Part shown: one piece after another, positions 4,616-13,083 of the stretch
How the letters are laid out: every line of letters starts with the position of its first letter
How positions within the stretch are numbered: position 1 is the stretch's first letter
Origin: a virus
Lineage: Duplodnaviria > Heunggongvirae > Uroviricota > Caudoviricetes
Length of the DNA stretch: 13,931 bases
Reading direction: 5' to 3' (one strand)
Virus record (IMG/VR): IMGVR_UViG_2728369553_000003
The notes under the pieces: generated by a model
What the model was told of the DNA's origin: nothing
What the model saw: the letters and a program-made list of their open reading frames with translations, nothing else
Database searches by the model: none
Position numbers and translations under genes: made by a program

Positions 4616-4732
4616 ATGAATAGCCGCAGTTTCGCCTCCGACAGAAAATCGGAGCGTGAAATGATATGTTGATTTATTATTAATTCGAAAATTACATTCT
4701 AATTCATCAGGCATTGATGATTTTATAATAAT

Positions 4733-4755
4733 AAAGGCCGTTCGTTACGGCCTTT
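4733..4755 (-). terminator. Rho-independent terminator after the acidic moron gene
   Basis: Perfect 8-bp stem AAAGGCCG / CGGCCTTT with a 7-nt loop, flanked by A/T-rich runs on both sides, 12 nt downstream of the moron stop. Confidence 0.6.
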
Positions 4756-4766
4756 ATTATTGATAT

Positions 4767-5102
4767 TTATTTTACATCCCAAGGTAGTTCCTCAAGAGAG
4801 AAGACTAATTCATTATCAATGATTTCGTATTCTGCATAACCTTCAACCTCTCCTGAGAAGTTATTGTCAACGCATCCTTCATAATAGCTATATGGTGCTA
4901 TAAAGTGAAACCCATATTCATCTATCTCTGTGATTTCAAAATTGTAGTAATCGTAAGAATATCGAATATCATCATCAGAAATAGAACTAAGTACATAGTT
5001 ATTAAATTTATCGGAATGCTTAACGATAAGCTCTGACAACGCGTCAAGATTCTCTGGAGAGATATTTCCTAACGGTAATCTGTACTCAACGGCATTAATC
5101 AT
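4767..5102 (-). CDS. Hypothetical highly acidic 111-aa protein; moron between the Q-like gene/tR' and the holin
   Basis: ATG at 5100-5102 with a GGAGG 4 nt upstream. AT-rich. About 24 D/E against 5 K/R; no signal peptide or TM. Flanked by its own candidate promoter and terminator. Confidence 0.7.
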   Translation of the reverse strand: MINAVEYRLPLGNISPENLDALSELIVKHSDKFNNYVLSSISDDDIRYSYDYYNFEITEIDEYGFHFIAPYSYYEGCVDNNFSGEVEGYAEYEIIDNELVFSLEELPWDVK

Positions 5103-5157: not shown

Positions 5158-5182
5158 TAAAAACCCGCTCAACAGCGGGTTC
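5152..5182 (-). terminator. tR'-like rho-independent terminator downstream of the late promoter
   Basis: 9-bp stem AAACCCGCT / AGCGGGTTT with loop CAAC at 5161-5182, followed on the minus strand by a T-rich run, about 40-60 nt downstream of the predicted late transcription start. Confidence 0.55.
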
Positions 5183-5227
5183 GTGAAAATTATCAACGGC
5201 AGACATACAAAGCCCATCGTTGAGAAA

Positions 5228-5256
5228 ATCTTATCCATATTTTTTGAAAAATGCAA
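5228..5256 (-). promoter_or_regulatory. pR'-like late promoter (the Q engagement site would overlap)
   Basis: Minus strand TTGCAT-17nt-TAAGAT immediately downstream of the Q-like stop at 5288-5290. The arrangement promoter, short leader, terminator, lysis genes matches lambdoid late control. Confidence 0.5.
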
Positions 5257-5287
5257 GCTTCATGTCGCCATCTTCGGCGAAAATCAC

Positions 5288-6040
5288 TTATCTCGTCACC
5301 TTTCTCAATTGCGTTTCAGCATATGCTTCTTCCTGCCAGCACTTTGTTACTAGTTTATCAATTACGTCTGCATATCCTTTGTACCACTGATAATCAGTCA
5401 GGTCTGGAACCAGCTTCTGGACATGACGTCGTGCCAGTGTAGTTGGTAAACGGCTAAACCGGTTTCCATTGCAACGCCCACAAATCTTATAAACAGGCGT
5501 GCCATGAAGCCGGGTCCTTTTTTCATCCAGGACAATACCTTTACCCTTACACCCTCTGCACGCTGTGCTGACTTCTCCCTTACCATGACAATGCTGACAT
5601 AGTTCCTTCACCCACTCTTCCTTGATAACAGATTCCCCGCTTCTGGAGTGTTTCACCACCTCGCGCAATACATTATGAAATCCAGTACCAGCACAATGCT
5701 CACAGCGAGCCTTACTTGCCGCAGACCTGGAATAATCAGCAAAGGCAAAATTCACAAGGTAAGGAATGATCTGTAGCCGGGTTTCTTCACTCAATTTATT
5801 CAATGTCGGGTTATCCAGTGCCATCGCGTAATTGAGCAGACCTTCAATCGCAAACTGAGGATCCTGAACACCAACTTTTGCCAGGAATAAGGCAAACCCA
5901 AGCGGTGCTTTCGACTGCACCATCCCCTGCGCAGCCATCACATCCGTAATCGTTAAACCACCAGAGCCTGTCGCCGGTGCGTCATCGCTCAGTTTTGGAG
6001 ATTTCGGGGAGTAATATTTCGGTAAGGCTTCAAGGTTCAT
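5288..6040 (-). CDS. Putative late antiterminator Q-like protein (250 aa, four CxxCxGxG zinc-finger repeats)
   Basis: Position immediately upstream of the pR'/tR'-like elements and the lysis cassette. Cys-rich repeats CEHCAGTG, CQHCHGKG, CRGCKGKG, CGRCNGN. ATG at 6038-6040 with a GGAGAA SD. Family assignment rests on context and recall. Confidence 0.55.
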   Translation of the reverse strand: MNLEALPKYYSPKSPKLSDDAPATGSGGLTITDVMAAQGMVQSKAPLGFALFLAKVGVQDPQFAIEGLLNYAMALDNPTLNKLSEETRLQIIPYLVNFAFADYSRSAASKARCEHCAGTGFHNVLREVVKHSRSGESVIKEEWVKELCQHCHGKGEVSTACRGCKGKGIVLDEKRTRLHGTPVYKICGRCNGNRFSRLPTTLARRHVQKLVPDLTDYQWYKGYADVIDKLVTKCWQEEAYAETQLRKVTR

Positions 6041-6053
6041 GCTCGTTCTCCAC

Positions 6054-6985
6054 TTACGCCAGTACGCCTATTGCCAGCGCACGATCGATAAAACGAAATA
6101 TCAGCTCCAGCTGGGAACCATACTTCTCTTCAAATGCCACGGTATCCGCATGCAGCTCGTCGTGATGCTTTCTGCACAAAGGCAACACAAAGAGGTCATG
6201 CGCTTTTGTACCCATTCCCCCCTGACCGTGGCCTATCAGGTGGTGGGGATCATCAGCAGGCTTTCCACAACATGCACACGGCTGTGTCTTAACCCAGCGT
6301 GTGTACTTTTCATTAACCCAGCGGCGACGTTTTGGGCGTAACATAAAAGACTCCGGCGACTCCGGATCCACTTTCAGCGCCAGCACCTTTTTCACCTTAT
6401 CCTGGATGATGCTGGTGGCAGGAACCGAAGGCACAAGGTCACTTTCCCGGGTGACAGACGGCACAACAGGCTTCGGTAATCTCAGTGCCTTACGGGCTGC
6501 ACTTTCCGGTAAGGCATCCGCCAGGTCATTACGAATCAGCCACCAGCACAGTTCCGGCATTGTCACAACGTGACTATCATCAAAACCGAGATCCCGACGC
6601 ACAACAGACAACACCCAGCGGGCACAGTTATCCGTTGCCATTGATTCCAGCCGTTCCGTGAACTGATCGCGCAGCTGGTTATCGCAGTGCCAGCACAGAC
6701 GGATTGCGCCCGGCGCGTGTCGCATTGTTGTCATGTTCTCGCTGTGCCAGTCGGAATGAGGCCACTGGCAGCCTTTTTCACGAAGTAACCAGCTTTCAAG
6801 ACATTCCACGCCACCAGCACGACGGATCACTGCCTCATTGCGGAACACGGCCCGAACGTCAGGATCATCCGCCAGCGGTTGTGATGCCGCCGGAACAGCA
6901 CCACTGGCGAAAGATGAATAACGTTCCGGCTCAGGCTCCAGCAGGACACGCCCCTGCATAAACAGGGGCATCAGCTCTGAACCTG
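6054..6985 (-). CDS. DUF968-like protein (N-terminus hidden in assembly gap)
   Basis: Open minus frame from the gap edge to the stop at 6054-6056. C-terminal motif CACCGKPADDPHHLIGHGQGGMGTKAHDLFVLPLCRKHHDELH recalled as characteristic of DUF968 prophage proteins. Probably a separate gene from the KilA-N ORF, though the tracker fuses them across the N-run. Confidence 0.5.
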
Positions 6986-7111
6986 NNNNNNNNNNNNNNN
7001 NNNNNNNNNNNNNNNNNNNNNNNNNNNNNNNNNNNNNNNNNNNNNNNNNNNNNNNNNNNNNNNNNNNNNNNNNNNNNNNNNNNNNNNNNNNNNNNNNNNN
7101 NNNNNNNNNNN
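6986..7111. other. Assembly gap (126 N) hiding the boundary between the KilA-N and DUF968 coding regions
   Basis: Run of N. Confidence 0.95.
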
Positions 7112-7874
7112 GGAATCGGGATTCGAAGAAATGCGGCTGCGTCTCACGCGGATTTGCGGGACTGGTGATATTCTTGCCGAACATGCAGCCTTTCGCTGTC
7201 AGCGACCAGAATTTTTTGATGTTGTTAATCGCTGTACGGCTGTATCGTTCGCGCTGTTCGACGATCCCCAGCTTCGCCATCTGGTGATATGCCTGATTAG
7301 CCGTAAGGCGGATACCATACTGCTTCAGCAGTGCACTCAGTGACAGCGTGGGGCGGCTTGAGCCATCAGGCGCGTCAGCAGGAGCATCAATGGCATAGCG
7401 CGGTGCCAGATTCGGTAAGCCAACAGCCTCCTGAAGTTTCTGACAGGCTCCAAGCACTGAAGAGTTAGACAGATTTAACTCCCGGCGCATAAAGTCCAGC
7501 AGAATCACACCAGCCTGCATCTTGTCAGCAGCCTGTCCGGATAATTTTTCCGGTGCGCTGGTTACCATGTCGAAAGTACGGATCACCTTCAGATGGAATG
7601 ACGGGCTGATCCACATTGCATAGGCATACACCAGTTCTTTGCAGACATACGTCCCCTGGTTATTTCCGCCACGAATAACGTTAACTGGCTCTATATTGAC
7701 CGAGTTGCAAATCTGCAACTCGCTTATTAAACGCTCAGTTTGCTCATTGCGGAGCCAGAATGCAGGCTTATGCTTATCCAGAGAACCGGCAGCCCTGTGC
7801 AGATCGTTCAGGCTGTAACGCCCATAAGCATCACGACGAACTTCAATACCATCAATGACCATCAGATTATTCAT
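7112..7874 (-). CDS. KilA-N domain antirepressor-like protein (C-terminus hidden in gap)
   Basis: ATG at 7872-7874 with a GAGGAG 9 nt upstream. N-terminus MNNLMVIDGIEVRRDAYGRYSLNDLHRAAG... is KilA-N-like, followed by an antirepressor-like C-region. The open frame runs into the N-run. Confidence 0.6.
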
Positions 7875-7893
7875 ACTTCGTTTCTCCTCTTAA

Positions 7894-8283
7894 TCAGGCG
7901 GCTGCACCCGCCGTTTTCTCGTACTTACTGATAGTGATCTCGACCTTCCCTTCCGGGATAACCGGTCCCCACTCCACCAGCATTCTTTTCACCTGACTGT
8001 CGTCTTCCCACACACCCGCGTGGGTCAGGGCGTCAAACAGCGCCTTGTTATAGTTGTCCAGATCGCGGATCCGGTTATCCGGAGGAAACAACACGATCTC
8101 CACTGAAGCAGGTGCCGACGTTGGTTTTGGCAGACGACGTAACTGCTCAACTATTGCTGCACACGCCGCGCTCTGGAATTTGCGCCCCGCCGCGCTTATC
8201 AGGCTCTTACCTGCAAACGCCCCTTTGTTGGGGTGTCGCCAGTACGTGTTCACGCTGGGCGGGAAAGGCAGAATCAGCTTCAT
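7894..8283 (-). CDS. rusA: RusA-family Holliday junction resolvase
   Basis: 129 aa with a RusA-like layout (PPS.N.Y.R...; ...RDLDNYNKALFDALT..GVW.DD.QV). ATG at 8281-8283 overlaps the upstream stop (ATGA). Confidence 0.8.
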   Translation of the reverse strand: MKLILPFPPSVNTYWRHPNKGAFAGKSLISAAGRKFQSAACAAIVEQLRRLPKPTSAPASVEIVLFPPDNRIRDLDNYNKALFDALTHAGVWEDDSQVKRMLVEWGPVIPEGKVEITISKYEKTAGAAA

Positions 8284-8606
8284 ACTTTCAGACCCCTCTC
8301 ATGTAACCAGTGGGCTGCACGCAGCCTGGCGTTTTCCTCACCGGCAAGCAGTGAGCGGATAATCCCGACCGCCTCGCTGTCGTCGTCCTTCACCGCGGTA
8401 TGAAGCGTTATCCCCCGGGCCACACCACGCTTTATCGTGATGACGCCTTTTTTCTCCAGTGCGCGAAGATGCTCCACCGCTGCATTCACTGAACGATATC
8501 CCAGCATGGTTGCCACCTCCTGATTGGTTGGCGGAAAGCCACGCTCTTTCTGGTAAGAAATCAGCATATCCAGCACCTGCTGCTGGCATTGAGTTAACGT
8601 CGTCAT
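8280..8606 (-). CDS. LexA N-terminal DNA-binding-domain homolog lacking the S24 peptidase domain
   Basis: Residues 4-68 align with the E. coli LexA winged-helix domain at about 50% identity as recalled (LT..QQ.V.D.I......G.PPT..E.A..LG.RS.NAA.EHL.AL..KGVI.I..G..RGI.L). No Ala-Gly cleavage site or Ser/Lys dyad follows; the 40-aa C-tail is unrelated. Translationally coupled on both sides by ATGA overlaps. Confidence 0.8.
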   Translation of the reverse strand: MTTLTQCQQQVLDMLISYQKERGFPPTNQEVATMLGYRSVNAAVEHLRALEKKGVITIKRGVARGITLHTAVKDDDSEAVGIIRSLLAGEENARLRAAHWLHERGLKV

Positions 8607-9256
8607 GCCGCCATCTCCCTGACCAGTTTTTCCGCCTGCTGGCGAACCTGCACCAGAAAGGCTTCACCACATGCCTCAAGTTCATCGCGCCCGATGTAGC
8701 TGATTGCCGGTCCCTTCCAGGTCTTGTCGAAAACAGCAATAGCACCAGCGAAGAAAGCGCCTGTCGGTACCTGCTTCTCGTCTTTCGGGATAAACCAGAC
8801 AGGCAGTTCAAAACCAATACGCCCGCGAATAAAAGCAATATGATCTGCATTTTCCGGCCACCACACTTCGCTGGTGGCAGCTTTGATCAGGAAAACATAG
8901 CGCCCGCCTTTATCACGCATGGCACTGGCATGCTTCATGATGTAACGCATGCCGGTGATGTATTGCCCCTCATGCTGACTGGCGCGGCTGTATGGGGGAT
9001 TACCAAAGGCAGCACCTTTAAGCTCCGCAAGACGTTCTGACCAGTCATGCGCCAGCGCGTTGTCTTCCGCCGTGTAATACGCGGCACATTTGGCGTTATC
9101 ACCGTCAGTGAACAGATCCAGAACAAACGGGCCAAACAGGGTGTTAATTCCCCAGAAAATGTTGTCCGGCGTGCGCCACTGATCGCCCACTTCCTTCAGT
9201 TCATGGGCTGGTTTGTTCCGCAGTTCCACCAGCGCCTGGCAATATTTATTACTCAT
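8603..9256 (-). CDS. Phage Dam-family DNA N6-adenine methyltransferase
   Basis: Catalytic NPPY motif (FGNPPYS) and an N-terminal WRTPDNIF...LDLFTD segment. The likely start is the ATG at 9254-9256 (GGGGG SD, overlaps the upstream TAA); the tracker start at 9289 is GTG. Confidence 0.8.
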   Translation of the reverse strand: MSNKYCQALVELRNKPAHELKEVGDQWRTPDNIFWGINTLFGPFVLDLFTDGDNAKCAAYYTAEDNALAHDWSERLAELKGAAFGNPPYSRASQHEGQYITGMRYIMKHASAMRDKGGRYVFLIKAATSEVWWPENADHIAFIRGRIGFELPVWFIPKDEKQVPTGAFFAGAIAVFDKTWKGPAISYIGRDELEACGEAFLVQVRQQAEKLVREMAA

Positions 9257-9744
9257 TAAGCCCCCACGTAATTCCCTGACAGATACCACTCTTCACCCGA
9301 TGCAGCGCGCTTGCTGCTTTTCCGTAAGCACCGCTCACGACGCGCCAGAAAATTGTTTCGCTCTTGCTGGGAGTGGCTTTCACGGAATGCCGCCATCCAC
9401 ACCGTTGCAGCACGACGGTATAAGCCCCTGGACTCCAGTTCTTCCGCCTGGCGGGTCAGGCACAAAATCTCCCGCGGGTCGTTAGTGCCGACATAGAAAT
9501 TGCGCACAGGTCTGGTTTCACGAACTGGTTGCGGTTCCGCCTCCTGCGCTCTCTCAGTCAGGCGCGGGAAATGTCTGCGTGTATCCCCTTCACAACGGTG
9601 AGCCACACGACCACTCTGACGTAACTTGCTTGCTGACTGCAGAACGCGCTGCCGTGAGTAACCTGCAAAAGCATCCGCAATGTCTCCGGAAGTACACCCC
9701 GGATGGGCTTCAATGTATTTCTGAACTTCATTCAAAAGACTCAT
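9256..9744 (-). CDS. Hypothetical 162-aa regulator-like protein (tentative resemblance to PerC-family activators)
   Basis: ATG at 9742-9744 with a GGGGGTG SD, 2 nt after the O-like stop. The C-terminal segment AEELESRGLYRRAATVWMAAF is recalled as PerC-like; this is unverified. It sits where lambdoid phages normally carry a helicase loader. Confidence 0.45.
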   Translation of the reverse strand: MSLLNEVQKYIEAHPGCTSGDIADAFAGYSRQRVLQSASKLRQSGRVAHRCEGDTRRHFPRLTERAQEAEPQPVRETRPVRNFYVGTNDPREILCLTRQAEELESRGLYRRAATVWMAAFRESHSQQERNNFLARRERCLRKSSKRAASGEEWYLSGNYVGA

Positions 9745-9746
9745 GA

Positions 9747-10837
9747 TCACCCCCTGAATCCTGCCGGGATCTGGCTGTAGTCCACGTTGTCGTAACTGGC
9801 TTTGAAGTACGGGTCTTCGCGTTTTTCGGTGTACGTGCTGACGGACGGCGATAAGCGCAGGGAAAGCTCATCCCATTTTTCCCGCAGCTTCGACGGGCTG
9901 AGCACGTTACGGCACCAGAACGGATCGCGGCTGACGCGGCTGTACATCTCGCAGATTTGTTTGTGAGTACGACCATCCTGCACACACATCAGGCGAATTT
10001 CGTTTGCCCAGGCTGTCCAGTTCGGTTCTTTGGGACGAACCACCTCGCCGTCACATTCGGCGGCTTGCTCGTACAGGGCGATGATTTTTTTCCAGAGCCA
10101 CTGTGCGCAGGTCAAATCATCCTGCGTTCCCCACTGGCGCTTTTTAGGGCTGAATACAACCGCATCAGGATGGCGAGTTAAAAAATCCTGTTCATCCGTC
10201 TGCGTGTCCGGTTGCGAAGCGTCCGGACGAGAAGGTTTTTTATCTGACGGATCATGTTTTGATTTTACTGACGGATCCCCGCCAGATTCTGACGGGTGAA
10301 AACCCGCTTTTTTGCCAGATTTCNNNNNNNNNNCTCCTGTTCAGCCGTCTGCGTGTCCGGTTGCGAAGCGTCCGGACGAGAAGTTTTTTTATCTGACGGA
10401 TCATGTTTTGATTTTACTGACGGATCCCCGCCAGATTCTGACGGGTGAAAACCCGCTTTTTTGCCAGATTTCGACGCATCAAATTTTGACGGGTCAGATT
10501 TTGATGCGTCAGATTTTGACGGGTCAGAATCTGACAGTTGAGAAAATGCCGCTGCCTGAAGCTTCGCAACGTTAAGCTGATAAACATTCGACGCATTGCG
10601 GTTACCCTGGCGACGCGCCTTACGCGTTAACCAGCCTTCTGCTTCCAGCCGTGCGATAGCCGTCCTGACGGTACTCATCCCCGCGCCAATCTGACGGGCA
10701 ATAGTTTCAATTGATGGCCAGCACACACCTTCGTCATTACTGAAATCAGCCAGGCGGGCCATAATTGCCACGCTGGATAATTTCATGCCTGACGCAGCGC
10801 AACCATCCCATACATAGCCGGTTAATTTAGTGCTCAT
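9747..10837 (-). CDS. O-like replication initiator, apparently split by a 10-N gap and an unmerged 138-bp contig overlap
   Basis: N-terminal winged-helix domain (10561-10837), then a repeat-encoded SDPSK/SDASK linker, then a C-terminal domain (9747-10185). The tracker reports two ORFs (10265..10837 and 9747..10115, the latter with a TTG start). Collapsing the duplicated 138-bp copies restores one in-frame ORF of about 313 aa. Confidence 0.65.
10186..10472. repeat. 138-bp direct repeat (10186-10323 and 10335-10472) flanking a 10-N gap; probable unmerged contig overlap
   Basis: The copies are identical except for two positions (10195 T vs 10344 G; 10235 G vs 10384 T). The 149-nt offset breaks the frame as presented, but the frame is restored if one copy is removed. 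Confidence 0.7.
10391..10540. repeat. Iteron-like repeats inside the O-like gene (candidate origin of replication)
   Basis: Five tandem 15-bp units at 10464-10538 (consensus about TCAGATTTTGACGGG), plus spaced CTGACGG motifs at about 10393, 10417 and 10437. Lambda ori likewise lies in iterons within O. Confidence 0.5.
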
Positions 10838-10846
10838 GACCGACCT

Positions 10847-11185
10847 CTATTTCCCTGAATTTACGACGAAACTGTTCGAGCGGGCTGAAGCACTCATGCT
10901 CATAGCCTTCGCGGAGGTAGATAACTCGTTGTGTTTCCGGCTCCCAACGAATGACTCTGACGGGCACTCCGTAGTGATCTTTGAACCAGCGGTTAACTTG
11001 TCGCAAAGGACTGTCTCCTTCTGCCGGTTGAAATCACCCACAGCCCACTCAGCAAAGCTGTGGGTTACAATTTCCCTGTCACCTGGTACATTAACTGCAT
11101 AGCAATACTCCACCTTCGCTTTTCCACCCGGTACAGGAAGCGCAATCAGTTGCGAGCGACGGAAGTGTGTTGTTAAACTGTTCAT
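10847..11185 (-). CDS. Hypothetical 112-aa protein between the CII-like and O-like genes
   Basis: ATG at 11183-11185 overlaps the CII-like stop (ATGA). Its stop lies 9 nt before the O-like ATG, with an AGG in between. The C-terminal 25 residues are low-complexity. Confidence 0.45.
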
Positions 11186-11778
11186 GCGTTAGTTTCTCCA
11201 CAGTCACGACACGCCACGGCGCCCGGAGCTGCACACTCGCGGGCGTCATTACTTTCTGAAATGCAAAAGATTTTGTAGACCAGTGCTGCATGCTCCTGCA
11301 GCTTCGAAATTGAGAGATACAGCTCGTCGTTAATTGCTGTCTTCTCATGCGGTTCCACCACACCGTCTTCGATTGCCGAACGAATCTGTCTGGAATAACT
11401 GCCAATCTGTTCAATGACTTCCAGCAGGCGCTGGTTAATATCGGCGTTGTCCACATCCTCGACGTCAGGAAGAGATACAAAGACGCCATTTGCAGACTGC
11501 GCCACAGCGTCAGCAATGAAGTGAGTTCCACCAGCACGTTGCAAAATCATTGCCCATCCCAGCGGGAAAATCTGATCGCCATCGGCACGAAGGCGGTTAA
11601 ATAATGCGTTTTCTGTTACATCCAGCCAGTCAGCTGCTTCAGCGTAACCACCCGGCAACGCTGCGATAGTTTTTCTGACAGCTTTCACGTACCACTCAGG
11701 CTGTTTTTCTACTTTCCAGTGATGCTTACCCACGGTTAGCCTCATCGTTCTGTGGTTTCTGTTAATCGATTTATCCAT
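11182..11778 (-). CDS. CII-like early regulator (phage regulatory CII / YdaT-type); start uncertain
   Basis: About 200 aa directly downstream of cro, in the cII position. The tracker start at 11847 is GTG and lies inside cro. Candidate ATG starts are at 11788-11790 and 11776-11778; the latter overlaps the cro stop (ATGGATAA). Confidence 0.5.
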
Positions 11779-11971
11779 TAGATTTTTCATAAAGCTCAGG
11801 TTTAAATGGCAACCGTCCGCAAGTTCTATATGCAGCTTCTGCTGCACGTCCTTTTGGAATTAACTGGCCCGGACGGTTTCGCCACTGATAAACGGCTTCA
11901 GTTGTTATGCCGAAAAAAGCAGCAACTTTCTCAATACTGCCGAAGTAGCTTTCGATATCGTCAGTTGTCAT
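11771..11971 (-). CDS. cro: Cro-like HTH repressor
   Basis: 66-aa HTH protein divergent from the cI-like gene. ATG at 11969-11971 with a GGAGG 4 nt upstream. Confidence 0.8.
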   Translation of the reverse strand: MTTDDIESYFGSIEKVAAFFGITTEAVYQWRNRPGQLIPKGRAAEAAYRTCGRLPFKPELYEKSNG

Positions 11972-12068
11972 ACGCCCTCCAAACTAAGTTTTATTAGATG
12001 CTAATTACAAATCTATCTTTGGTCAATAAAAACTAAGATTACTTAGCAATTCAAGAAATGGTGCTCCT
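11972..12068. promoter_or_regulatory. OR-like divergent control region with a PR-like promoter and CTAAG-based operator candidates
   Basis: Minus-strand TTGACC-17nt-TAGCAT (plus 11998-12026) upstream of the cro SD. Inverted repeat CTAAG-ATTA-CTTAG at 12033-12046 and a near-copy CTAAG-TTTT-ATTAG at 11984-11997. AACTAAG occurs at 11982 and 12031. Confidence 0.5.
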
Positions 12069-12695
12069 ATGGAAACGGTTGGTCAGCGTATAAAAGCTCT
12101 GAGAAGAGTTACCGGAACGTCCCAGAAAGAATTGGGTAAATTTTGTGGAGTAAGCGACGTTGCTGTGGGGTACTGGGAGAAAGACATCAATACCCCTGGT
12201 GGGGAGGCACTTTCGAAATTAGCGAAGTTCTTCAATACGTCAATAGATTACATTCTTTATGGTGCTGAGTTTGAAGGCAAACTCGTCACAAACATGCGCA
12301 GAGTTCCTGTAATATCGTGGGTTCAGGCTGGGCAGTTTACTGAGTGCAGGGCAGCAGAAGTGTTTAGTGAAGTGGACAAGTGGGTAGATACATCATTAAA
12401 GATTGGTGATAACTCATTTGCATTAGAGGTTAAAGGTGACTCCATGACTAACCCTAATGGCCTCCCAACAATACCAGAAGGCGCAACAGTGATTGTAGAT
12501 CCAGATGCAGAACCTCGTCATGGAAAAATAGTCATCGCTCGACTTGATGGAACAAACGAAGCTACAGTAAAAAAATTAGTCATCGATGGCCCTCAAAAGT
12601 TTTTAGTGCCATTAAATCCTCGGTATCCCAACATCCCTATCAATGGTAATTGCCTTATCATTGGTGTAGTCAAAGGAGTTCAATACGAACTCTAA
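12069..12695 (+). CDS. cI: cI-like prophage repressor (XRE HTH plus S24 LexA-type autopeptidase domain)
   Basis: N-terminal HTH (QKELGKFCGVSDVAVGYWE), Ala-Gly cleavage site (VQAGQF), catalytic Ser in GDSM and Lys in TVKKL. Divergent from cro. Confidence 0.9.
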   Translation: METVGQRIKALRRVTGTSQKELGKFCGVSDVAVGYWEKDINTPGGEALSKLAKFFNTSIDYILYGAEFEGKLVTNMRRVPVISWVQAGQFTECRAAEVFSEVDKWVDTSLKIGDNSFALEVKGDSMTNPNGLPTIPEGATVIVDPDAEPRHGKIVIARLDGTNEATVKKLVIDGPQKFLVPLNPRYPNIPINGNCLIIGVVKGVQYEL

Positions 12696-12777
12696 GACCT
12701 CTCTTCTCTAACTAAGGCACCGAACTAAGAAAAGTTTGGTGTTTTCTCTTGCCATAATAACTAAGTTAAGTTAGATT
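12692..12777 (+). promoter_or_regulatory. OL/pL-like region: three AACTAAG repeats and a TTGCCA-17-TAGATT promoter
   Basis: AACTAAG at 12710, 12723 and 12759; CTAAG also overlaps the cI stop at 12692. Candidate -35 TTGCCA (12749-12754) and -10 TAGATT (12772-12777), with one AACTAAG copy in the spacer. Confidence 0.45.
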
Positions 12778-12879
12778 TTATATCAAAGATAACGAACAGG
12801 CAGGACGCCCACGAAGTAGCCGCCGGTGGCGTATGAATGACCGGATGATTCGTTAAATACTATGTGTAAGAGAGCGCAA

Positions 12880-13083
12880 ATGAACCGTTATTTCACATGC
12901 TCGTTTTGTGGAGCAAACGAGCTGCAGGCAAAAAAAATCATCGCCAAAGGCGGAAAAGATGAAGTTGCTATCTGCTCTGAGTGCGTAGTCTTGTGTGTCG
13001 GGGCATTAATCAATATCAGCACAACTATTCAGTTCACACCAAATGAGAATGCGCCTTTAGATGCGCGGAAATCTGGAGGTTAA
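12880..13083 (+). CDS. Small ClpX-type C4 zinc-finger protein (67 aa)
   Basis: YFTCSFCG...KKIIAKGGKDEVAICSECVVLC matches the ClpX N-terminal zinc-binding domain pattern (CSFCG...ICDEC). ATG at 12880-12882 is preceded by AAGAGAG; the tracker start at 12862 lacks an SD. Confidence 0.6.
   Translation: MNRYFTCSFCGANELQAKKIIAKGGKDEVAICSECVVLCVGALINISTTIQFTPNENAPLDARKSGG

Follow-up and report, generated by a model that had tools for sequence, protein, structure and literature searches.

The window, by which is meant the whole stretch of 13,931 nucleotides that was analysed, covers the early-right arm of a lambdoid prophage on the minus strand. A cI-type repressor gene on the plus strand (12069–12695; HTH_3 and Peptidase_S24 domains in Pfam) diverges from the early-right operon. 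On the minus strand, a pR-like promoter (TTGACC-17-TAGCAT, 11998–12026, a match to the consensus only) lies upstream of cro, followed by cII (CP76), a DnaD/HTH_36-type replication gene, a PerC-like (YfdN-like) gene identified by a profile match (9256–9750), a phage Dam N6-adenine methyltransferase gene that is an optional neighbour (8603–9256), the LexA-like gene considered here (8280–8606), a RusA Holliday-junction resolvase gene (7894–8283), a KilA-N gene and a DUF968/HNHc-like (YdfU) gene (together 6054–7874), the Q antiterminator gene that marks the end of the early-right operon (5288–6040), and the lysis genes. The ATGA overlaps described in the initial annotation on both sides of the LexA-like gene are real, with its start overlapping the stop of Dam (8603–8606) and its stop overlapping the start of RusA (8280–8283), both visible as 'tcat' on the plus strand. 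Such coupling is the rule in this operon, where four consecutive gene junctions overlap by 1–4 nt and intergenic space is minimal, and it therefore says little about a specific partnership. Based on its position in the operon, we infer that the LexA-like gene would be expressed in the delayed-early phase of lytic growth, probably from the pR-like promoter, and be repressed in lysogens.

Several other features of the window were recorded. Runs of N occur at about 760–905, 7000–7130, and 10320–10335; one joins the KilA-N and DUF968 genes into an apparent 606-aa ORF (6054–7874) and another breaks the O-like replication gene, the C-terminal part of which is called as a separate 122-aa ORF (9747–10115). 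Within the replication-initiator gene, adjacent inverted repeats of the types GACGCATCAAATTTTGAC and GTCAGATTTTGAC (10473–10535) resemble origin iterons. Between Q and the holin lies a 111-aa ORF (4767–5102, minus strand) with no match in Pfam or PADLOC, near a strong bidirectional terminator-like hairpin (4726–4762) and a further terminator-like hairpin (5161–5182); it resembles a moron and occupies the site at which stx is found in Stx phages.

The LexA-like gene starts with ATG, has a GGAG-type ribosome-binding site ~9 nt upstream (a plausible Shine-Dalgarno), and encodes 108 amino acids followed by a stop codon. Codons 1–68 (8403–8606, minus strand) specify a LexA-type winged helix-turn-helix, with three helices and a beta wing, that was recovered by Pfam, AlphaFold2 (AF2), and Foldseek. 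The earlier observation that the N-terminal ~65 residues align with LexA at about 50% identity was confirmed, both by an ungapped count against E. coli LexA (33/65 residues, 50.8%) and by the profile check that had been proposed, which returned a full-length LexA_DNA_bind domain (PF01726; residues 1–65 against model positions 1–65 of 65, E = 2.9e-19), a match far beyond chance. BLASTP extended the alignment with E. coli LexA to residues 1–90 (43% identity, E = 1e-21), while the TIGR00498 LexA equivalog of NCBIfam scored 70.8 bits, under its cut-off of 110.95, and was covered only over positions 1–91 of 203. The AF2 model, which is only moderately good (pLDDT 77.9, pTM 0.52), has helices at residues 6–22, 28–35, and 40–52 and strands at 56–59 and 65–68, and was superposed by Foldseek on the LexA-DNA complex 3JSO with an rmsd of 1.5 Å over 66–67 columns (51–52% identity). 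The likeness of the recognition helix also holds, with SVNAAVEHL in the phage protein (residues 39–47; 8466–8492, minus strand) against SPNAAEEHL in LexA. Residues Ser39, Asn41, Ala42, Glu44, and Glu45 of LexA are reported to contact DNA (PMC3091678), and four of these five base-contact residues are identical in the phage protein (S39, N41, A42, E45), with Glu44 replaced by Val. A weak match from PADLOC to a CARF winged helix (E = 3.6e-4) was taken as generic similarity.

No S24 peptidase (PF00717, with its Ser119/Lys156 dyad) was found by Pfam or NCBIfam in the LexA-like protein, which ends at residue 108. The search is known to work, since the cI gene of the same window, used as a positive control, does match Peptidase_S24. 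The Ser/Lys peptidase domain is thus absent, as had been noted, in keeping with the TIGR00498 score under the cut-off, and the winged helix comes without autocleavage machinery, so that RecA* cannot inactivate the protein by the LexA route. The Ala-Gly site had likewise been described as absent, but this part of the description has to be corrected: A88-G89 (8340–8345, minus strand) aligns with A84-G85 of LexA in both the BLASTP and the phmmer alignments. The dipeptide is not conserved. Close relatives have LLANEE or LLVGEE at this position (AN or VG), relatives at 40–50% identity have unrelated residues, and AF2 places A88-G89 inside a predicted helix. Together, the alignments and the model suggest that the pair is probably a vestige of ancestry and not a cleavage site. 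A role as a pseudo-substrate or in trans-cleavage was considered and dropped because the dipeptide is not conserved.

Downstream of the winged helix, a linker predicted with low confidence (residues 69–74; 8385–8402, minus strand) is of variable length (pLDDT <50 at residues 71–74, indels among relatives) and leads into a family-specific tail (residues 75–108; 8283–8384, minus strand) that AF2 models as two helices (residues 75–87 and 93–102) and that may serve as a dimerisation or partner-binding module. The initial annotation had called this tail short, acidic, and helical; the helical part stands, while the acidic part does not, with 7 D/E against 6 K/R in 40 residues. HMMER, run exhaustively over 1.84 billion representatives, recovered relatives that share the tail at 41–52% identity (106–135 aa, with one of 165 aa), and the pattern xxIRxLLxxxxxAxxxAxxxLxxxG is kept in their alignment. 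A cluster look-up assigned tail-bearing relatives to Cronobacter, Kosakonia, Enterobacter, Cedecea, Klebsiella, and Salmonella, and locus and cluster look-ups further yielded Citrobacter, Escherichia, and Shigella, with all hosts belonging to the Enterobacteriaceae. Full-length relatives reach down to 40% identity and span at least eight genera of that family.

Substitution patterns were estimated separately for the two parts of the protein by the Nei-Gojobori method. For the winged-helix domain, dN/dS was ~0.05–0.2 and pN was lower than pS in every comparison. For the tail, dN/dS was ~0.13–0.4 in the four unsaturated comparisons and pN was lower than pS in six of seven pairwise comparisons; in the remaining comparison, that of the window with L007 (one of the three saturated comparisons), pN of the tail slightly exceeded pS. 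The signal of purifying selection is weaker in the tail than in the domain. As the tail is conserved among relatives and under purifying selection, it is a functional, family-defining module. No solved structure like the tail was matched, either by Foldseek with the model or by a search of the tail alone against PDB sequences, where the sole match, to the HOIL-1L tethering motif (a helical dimerisation element), was insignificant (E = 1.3) and is not evidence. The order of winged helix, flexible linker, and small helical module mirrors the layout of LexA and, by this analogy, the tail is probably a minimal dimerisation domain that takes over this role from the LexA C-terminal domain.

Of 5426 complete E. 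coli genomes, 2233 (~41%) carry the LexA-like gene, almost all copies being 95–100% identical, and NCBI annotates it there as 'LexA family transcriptional regulator'. Another 51 records that contain it are from phages, among them mEp460, SfII, and Stx2a/Stx2c phages, where it is called, for instance, 'LexA DNA binding domain protein'; SfV was matched by the wider window. The carriers include O157:H7 and Shigella serotype-converting phages. The protein falls in PHROG 362, labelled 'transcriptional repressor' (residues 1–108 against profile positions 1–106 of 106, E = 1.4e-59), and the family is 'pham 237' of a survey of Stx phages (PMC8136144). The searchable literature yielded catalogue mentions and no functional study of the family, which is already captured by database annotation; the kind of protein is known, and phage proteins of ~65–150 aa with a LexA domain only are widespread in BFVD. 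Other proteins (P0132, P0148, P0155, and others) possess two tandem LexA DNA-binding domains, one of them with an added PTPS domain, and show the reuse of the LexA domain in further non-LexA architectures.

Possible DNA targets were sought in the window and in related phages. The search for CTGT-N8-ACAG boxes that had been suggested, run on the window, gave no exact site in the 13.9 kb, and allowing ≤1 mismatch gave seven matches compared to 4.9 expected. A position weight matrix (PWM) built from 21 E. coli LexA sites reached a best score of 8.2 in the window, compared to 12.9–27 for known E. coli LexA sites. The relaxed pattern NTGT-N8-ACAN occurs neither in the window nor in the closest complete phage record (vB_EcoM-689R6, L023; 43 kb), and this record contains no SOS-type palindrome. 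A short-range inverted-repeat scan of positions 5200–13000 returned only the ori-type iterons in the O-like gene and coding sequence, and no candidate palindrome was found near Q or in the late region within the window. With no SOS box in the window or in 689R6, any SOS-type target would lie outside this phage. Among other carrier phages, at least one strong SOS box was present in 39 of the 80 neighbourhoods (±5 kb) of the LexA-like gene.

The residues expected to read such a site vary across the family. Most clades keep S39, N41, A42, E45, and H46, and in the E. coli clade the contact residues and the wing (R-G-I) are LexA-like, while Glu is never found at position 44 in any clade. The recognition helices elsewhere read SVNTITGH (Citrobacter), SVNSATAH (Kosakonia), SPNAATDM (Cronobacter), SSNAVLLH (Klebsiella), and SQNTVFIH (Salmonella), and the clades with changed contact positions live in Enterobacteriaceae hosts that have an identical SOS box. 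The isolated N-terminal domain of LexA retains partial SOS-box binding and repression, hence its removal by ClpXP (PMC10584840). Given the lack of an SOS box in the window and in the closest phage and the variation of the helices between clades, occupancy of SOS boxes by the LexA-like protein in a RecA-insensitive manner is plausible but unproven.

Two SOS boxes of carrier phages recur at defined positions. The SfII-type cI repressor gene contains a near-perfect box inside its coding sequence, where it encodes T-V-Y-K-N-S in the stretch that links the HTH and S24 domains (SfII, L022, 29167–29186; mEp460, L021, 31970–31989; L002, 3103–3122; L004, 1865–1884; L015, 851–870). The SfII copy reads TACTGTATATAAAAACAGTA on the cI strand, identical to the umuDC operator. 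The nucleotide sequence of the box is conserved even when the linker residues on either side of it have changed, as in Kluyvera (L015). A GGAG-like motif and an in-frame GTG come after the box, which makes a LexA-controlled, S24-only product of the SfII-type cI conceivable. The cI of the window itself is another allele and lacks the internal box. A strong box of the TACTGTAAAAATAAACAGTG type (PWM score 22–24) overlaps the first codons (M-K-N-T-V-K-I-S/N-S) of a late-region DNA methylase gene downstream of Q and recurs in several phages with the LexA-like gene, at positions that were checked against gene starts in mEp460 (41021–41040) and L007 (8926–8945); the same type of box occurs in L005 (10822), L006 (9929), L009 (10113), and L011 (6794).

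The reading favoured here, with a probability of roughly 0.4, is that of a RecA-insensitive, probably dimeric, LexA-derived DNA-binding protein of the early lytic phase, for which occupation of CTGT-type operators is likeliest in the E. coli clade. Encoded by a lambdoid prophage and made in the delayed-early phase, the protein would act as a sequence-specific DNA binder immune to RecA, with the tail supplying the dimerisation normally given by the C-terminal domain of LexA and the E. coli-type recognition helix (S-x-N-A-A-x-E-H-L) recognising CTGT-type half-sites. It could then sit on SOS-type operators during lytic growth, after cleavage of host LexA, and silence the LexA-controlled genes once more. 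The host SOS regulon and the LexA-controlled genes of co-resident elements are candidate targets, as are, in some carrier phages, the phage's own SOS boxes.

A different target would change the role of the protein. The LexA-like domain may have drifted to a non-SOS operator of the phage and activate or repress a promoter that times the lytic genes, in the manner of gp6 of GIL01. That protein, from a tectivirus of Bacillus thuringiensis, is a truncated LexA homologue that binds GaCACAnnTGTGaC and not the host LexA box and that activates the late promoter P3 (PMC6182141). It is the only characterised truncated phage LexA homologue that was found, and this precedent establishes that such a homologue can change its specificity and act as an activator. 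The diversification of the recognition helix between clades whose hosts have identical SOS boxes points in the same direction, as do the lack of an SOS box in the closest complete phage and the 'transcriptional repressor' label of PHROG 362. A phage operator would nonetheless have to be found in an operon with minimal intergenic space, and the scans produced no candidate, the inverted repeats being ori-type iterons and coding sequence only. Further, the late genes are already served by the Q antiterminator and the E. coli clade retains the LexA-like contact residues. A gp6-like regulator is judged somewhat less likely than the favoured reading. The protein might also be nothing more than the non-functional remnant of a captured lexA gene, in line with its being shorter than LexA and with the vestigial Ala-Gly. 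This is scarcely credible for an intact gene with a plausible Shine-Dalgarno before its start, held by over two thousand of the complete E. coli genomes at 95–100% identity, with full-length relatives diverged to 40% identity in at least eight Enterobacteriaceae genera and dN/dS well below 1.

Two further accounts draw on the neighbouring genes, which were counted in 80 IMG/VR loci with a 99–100% identical protein, both flanks being scorable in 78. The initial annotation had taken the overlaps to imply stoichiometric co-expression with Dam and RusA, which is a weak inference. Dam is wholly missing from 29 of the 78 loci; the link with RusA is stronger than had been noted, as RusA lies downstream in 80/80 E. 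coli loci and is found in fusions with the domain. In the Dam-less loci, the PerC-like gene adjoins the LexA-like gene with a gap of 2 nt (28 loci) or 17 nt (one locus). A methyltransferase does lie directly upstream in every divergent locus examined, from four families (Dam PF05869, MT-A70, C5, and C5+D12), with MT-A70 in Kosakonia sacchari, Dam plus a C5 enzyme in an Enterobacter MAG, and a C5+D12 fusion in other Kosakonia, as might be expected of a C-protein-like controller or a targeting factor for the adjacent enzyme. Such a role is very improbable, as near-identical proteins persist where Dam is missing and a 2-nt gap is left, so that the obligate methyltransferase linkage of C proteins is not seen; the LexA-like gene is downstream and not upstream of the methyltransferase, and its LexA-type fold differs from the Xre-type HTH fold of C proteins. 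The swapping of methyltransferase families and the empty slot in 29/78 loci indicate that an insertion hot spot between the PerC-like and LexA-like genes would be a better fit than functional pairing. Fused Dam-LexA ORFs in the protein database (P0021, P0092, P0098, P0120) have their simplest explanation in frameshifts called at the ATGA overlap. Both the methyltransferase-controller and the dead-remnant accounts are thus effectively excluded. The protein could also be a DNA-binding partner of the nin-region nucleases, with the tail binding RusA or DUF968/HNHc, the winged helix positioning the resolvase, and a role in recombination or the processing of replication intermediates rather than in transcription. 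Besides the constant RusA neighbour and its ATGA overlap in the window itself, Kluyvera/Klebsiella prophages carry a diversified lineage in which the winged helix (residues 1–68), a ~12-residue variable linker, and a full RusA are joined in one frame, with the two-helix tail lost and RusA in its place (L005 6001–6627; L006 6001 onward; L017 from Kluyvera; proteins P0268 and P0282–P0304). These fusions form 24 clusters at 90% identity among the matches listed, are 73–97% identical to the query, and measure 202–212 aa; the RusA part retains its own Met, preceded in L005 by GGAGGG. One fusion of a LexA-type domain with the HNH-like C-terminus of DUF968/YdfU, whose gene is the second nuclease-like gene in this region, is known from a single metagenome contig (P0158, 240 aa, a singleton cluster), and in Kosakonia and Enterobacter the LexA-like gene abuts DUF968. 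In opposition, a tblastn scan found no RusA adjoining the LexA-like gene in L007 and L009, where DUF968 is directly next, and RusA-bearing prophages such as DLP12 and phage 82 are not known to have a LexA-like partner. Adjacent-gene fusions can arise by deletion, P0359 and P0158 are single cases, and AF2 of the domain-RusA fusion predicts two independent domains with a disordered linker (pTM 0.44). RusA is a homodimer, and replacement of the tail by a homodimeric protein in Kluyvera fits the need for a dimeric partner domain, so a RusA that does no more than provide dimerisation would explain the fusion just as well. A partnership with the nucleases is judged improbable, and the same low standing is given to its more specific form, in which the winged helix would be a DNA tether of RusA and not a transcription factor, with a tail that docks RusA, a connection hard-wired in Kluyvera, and resolution directed to or held at CTGT-type sites. 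A comparably small share of the probability is reserved for activities other than those weighed here.

If the favoured reading of SOS-box occupancy immune to RecA* is true, a prophage, once induced, could shut down the SOS regulon of its host again, which includes LexA-controlled toxins, colicins, and the antirepressors of rival prophages. Such re-silencing would bear on the induction of Stx phages, on competition within polylysogens, and on the SOS response induced by antibiotics. If instead the partnership with RusA is true, the protein would be an accessory factor of a new kind for a phage resolvase.

Compared to known systems, the LexA-like protein shares with NinH of phage lambda, a small Fis-like DNA binder encoded in the nin region, the character of a small DNA-binding protein resembling a host regulator, with a gene that lies beside those of recombination nucleases in the interval from the replication genes to Q; NinH has a Fis-type HTH fold, and no homology is claimed. 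Other phage proteins with PF01726 only (BFVD, PHROG 362) have the same single-domain architecture, whereas the two-helix tail defines a subfamily found here in Enterobacteriaceae prophages only. Like GIL01 gp6, the protein consists of a LexA DNA-binding domain that lacks the protease, is encoded by a phage, and is made early in the lytic cycle, as its operon position would suggest here. The likeness to gp6 is drawn from its description, the LexA-domain matches of Tectiviridae in BFVD being only 25–30% identical. While gp6 is essentially a bare domain of a Gram-positive LexA lineage, the LexA-like protein adds the helical tail and belongs to a lambdoid phage that uses the Q antiterminator for its late genes. 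The N-terminal cleavage fragment of LexA (residues 1–84) is also a DNA-binding half without the C-terminal domain, but the host clears this fragment, on which a ClpX degradation signal is exposed, while the phage protein ends in ...RGLKV with its own tail, predicted to be folded, and for this reason need not share that fate. The N-terminal domain of intact E. coli LexA (1LEA, 3JSO) has the same winged helix, the S-x-N-A-A-x-E-H-L recognition helix, the R-G-I wing, and a flexible linker after the domain. Unlike LexA, the phage protein is without the S24 Ser/Lys peptidase and dimerisation domain or a conserved cleavage site, has Val in place of Glu44 and Asn in place of Arg28, possesses a two-helix tail of 34 residues, and is encoded by a phage in an early lytic operon.
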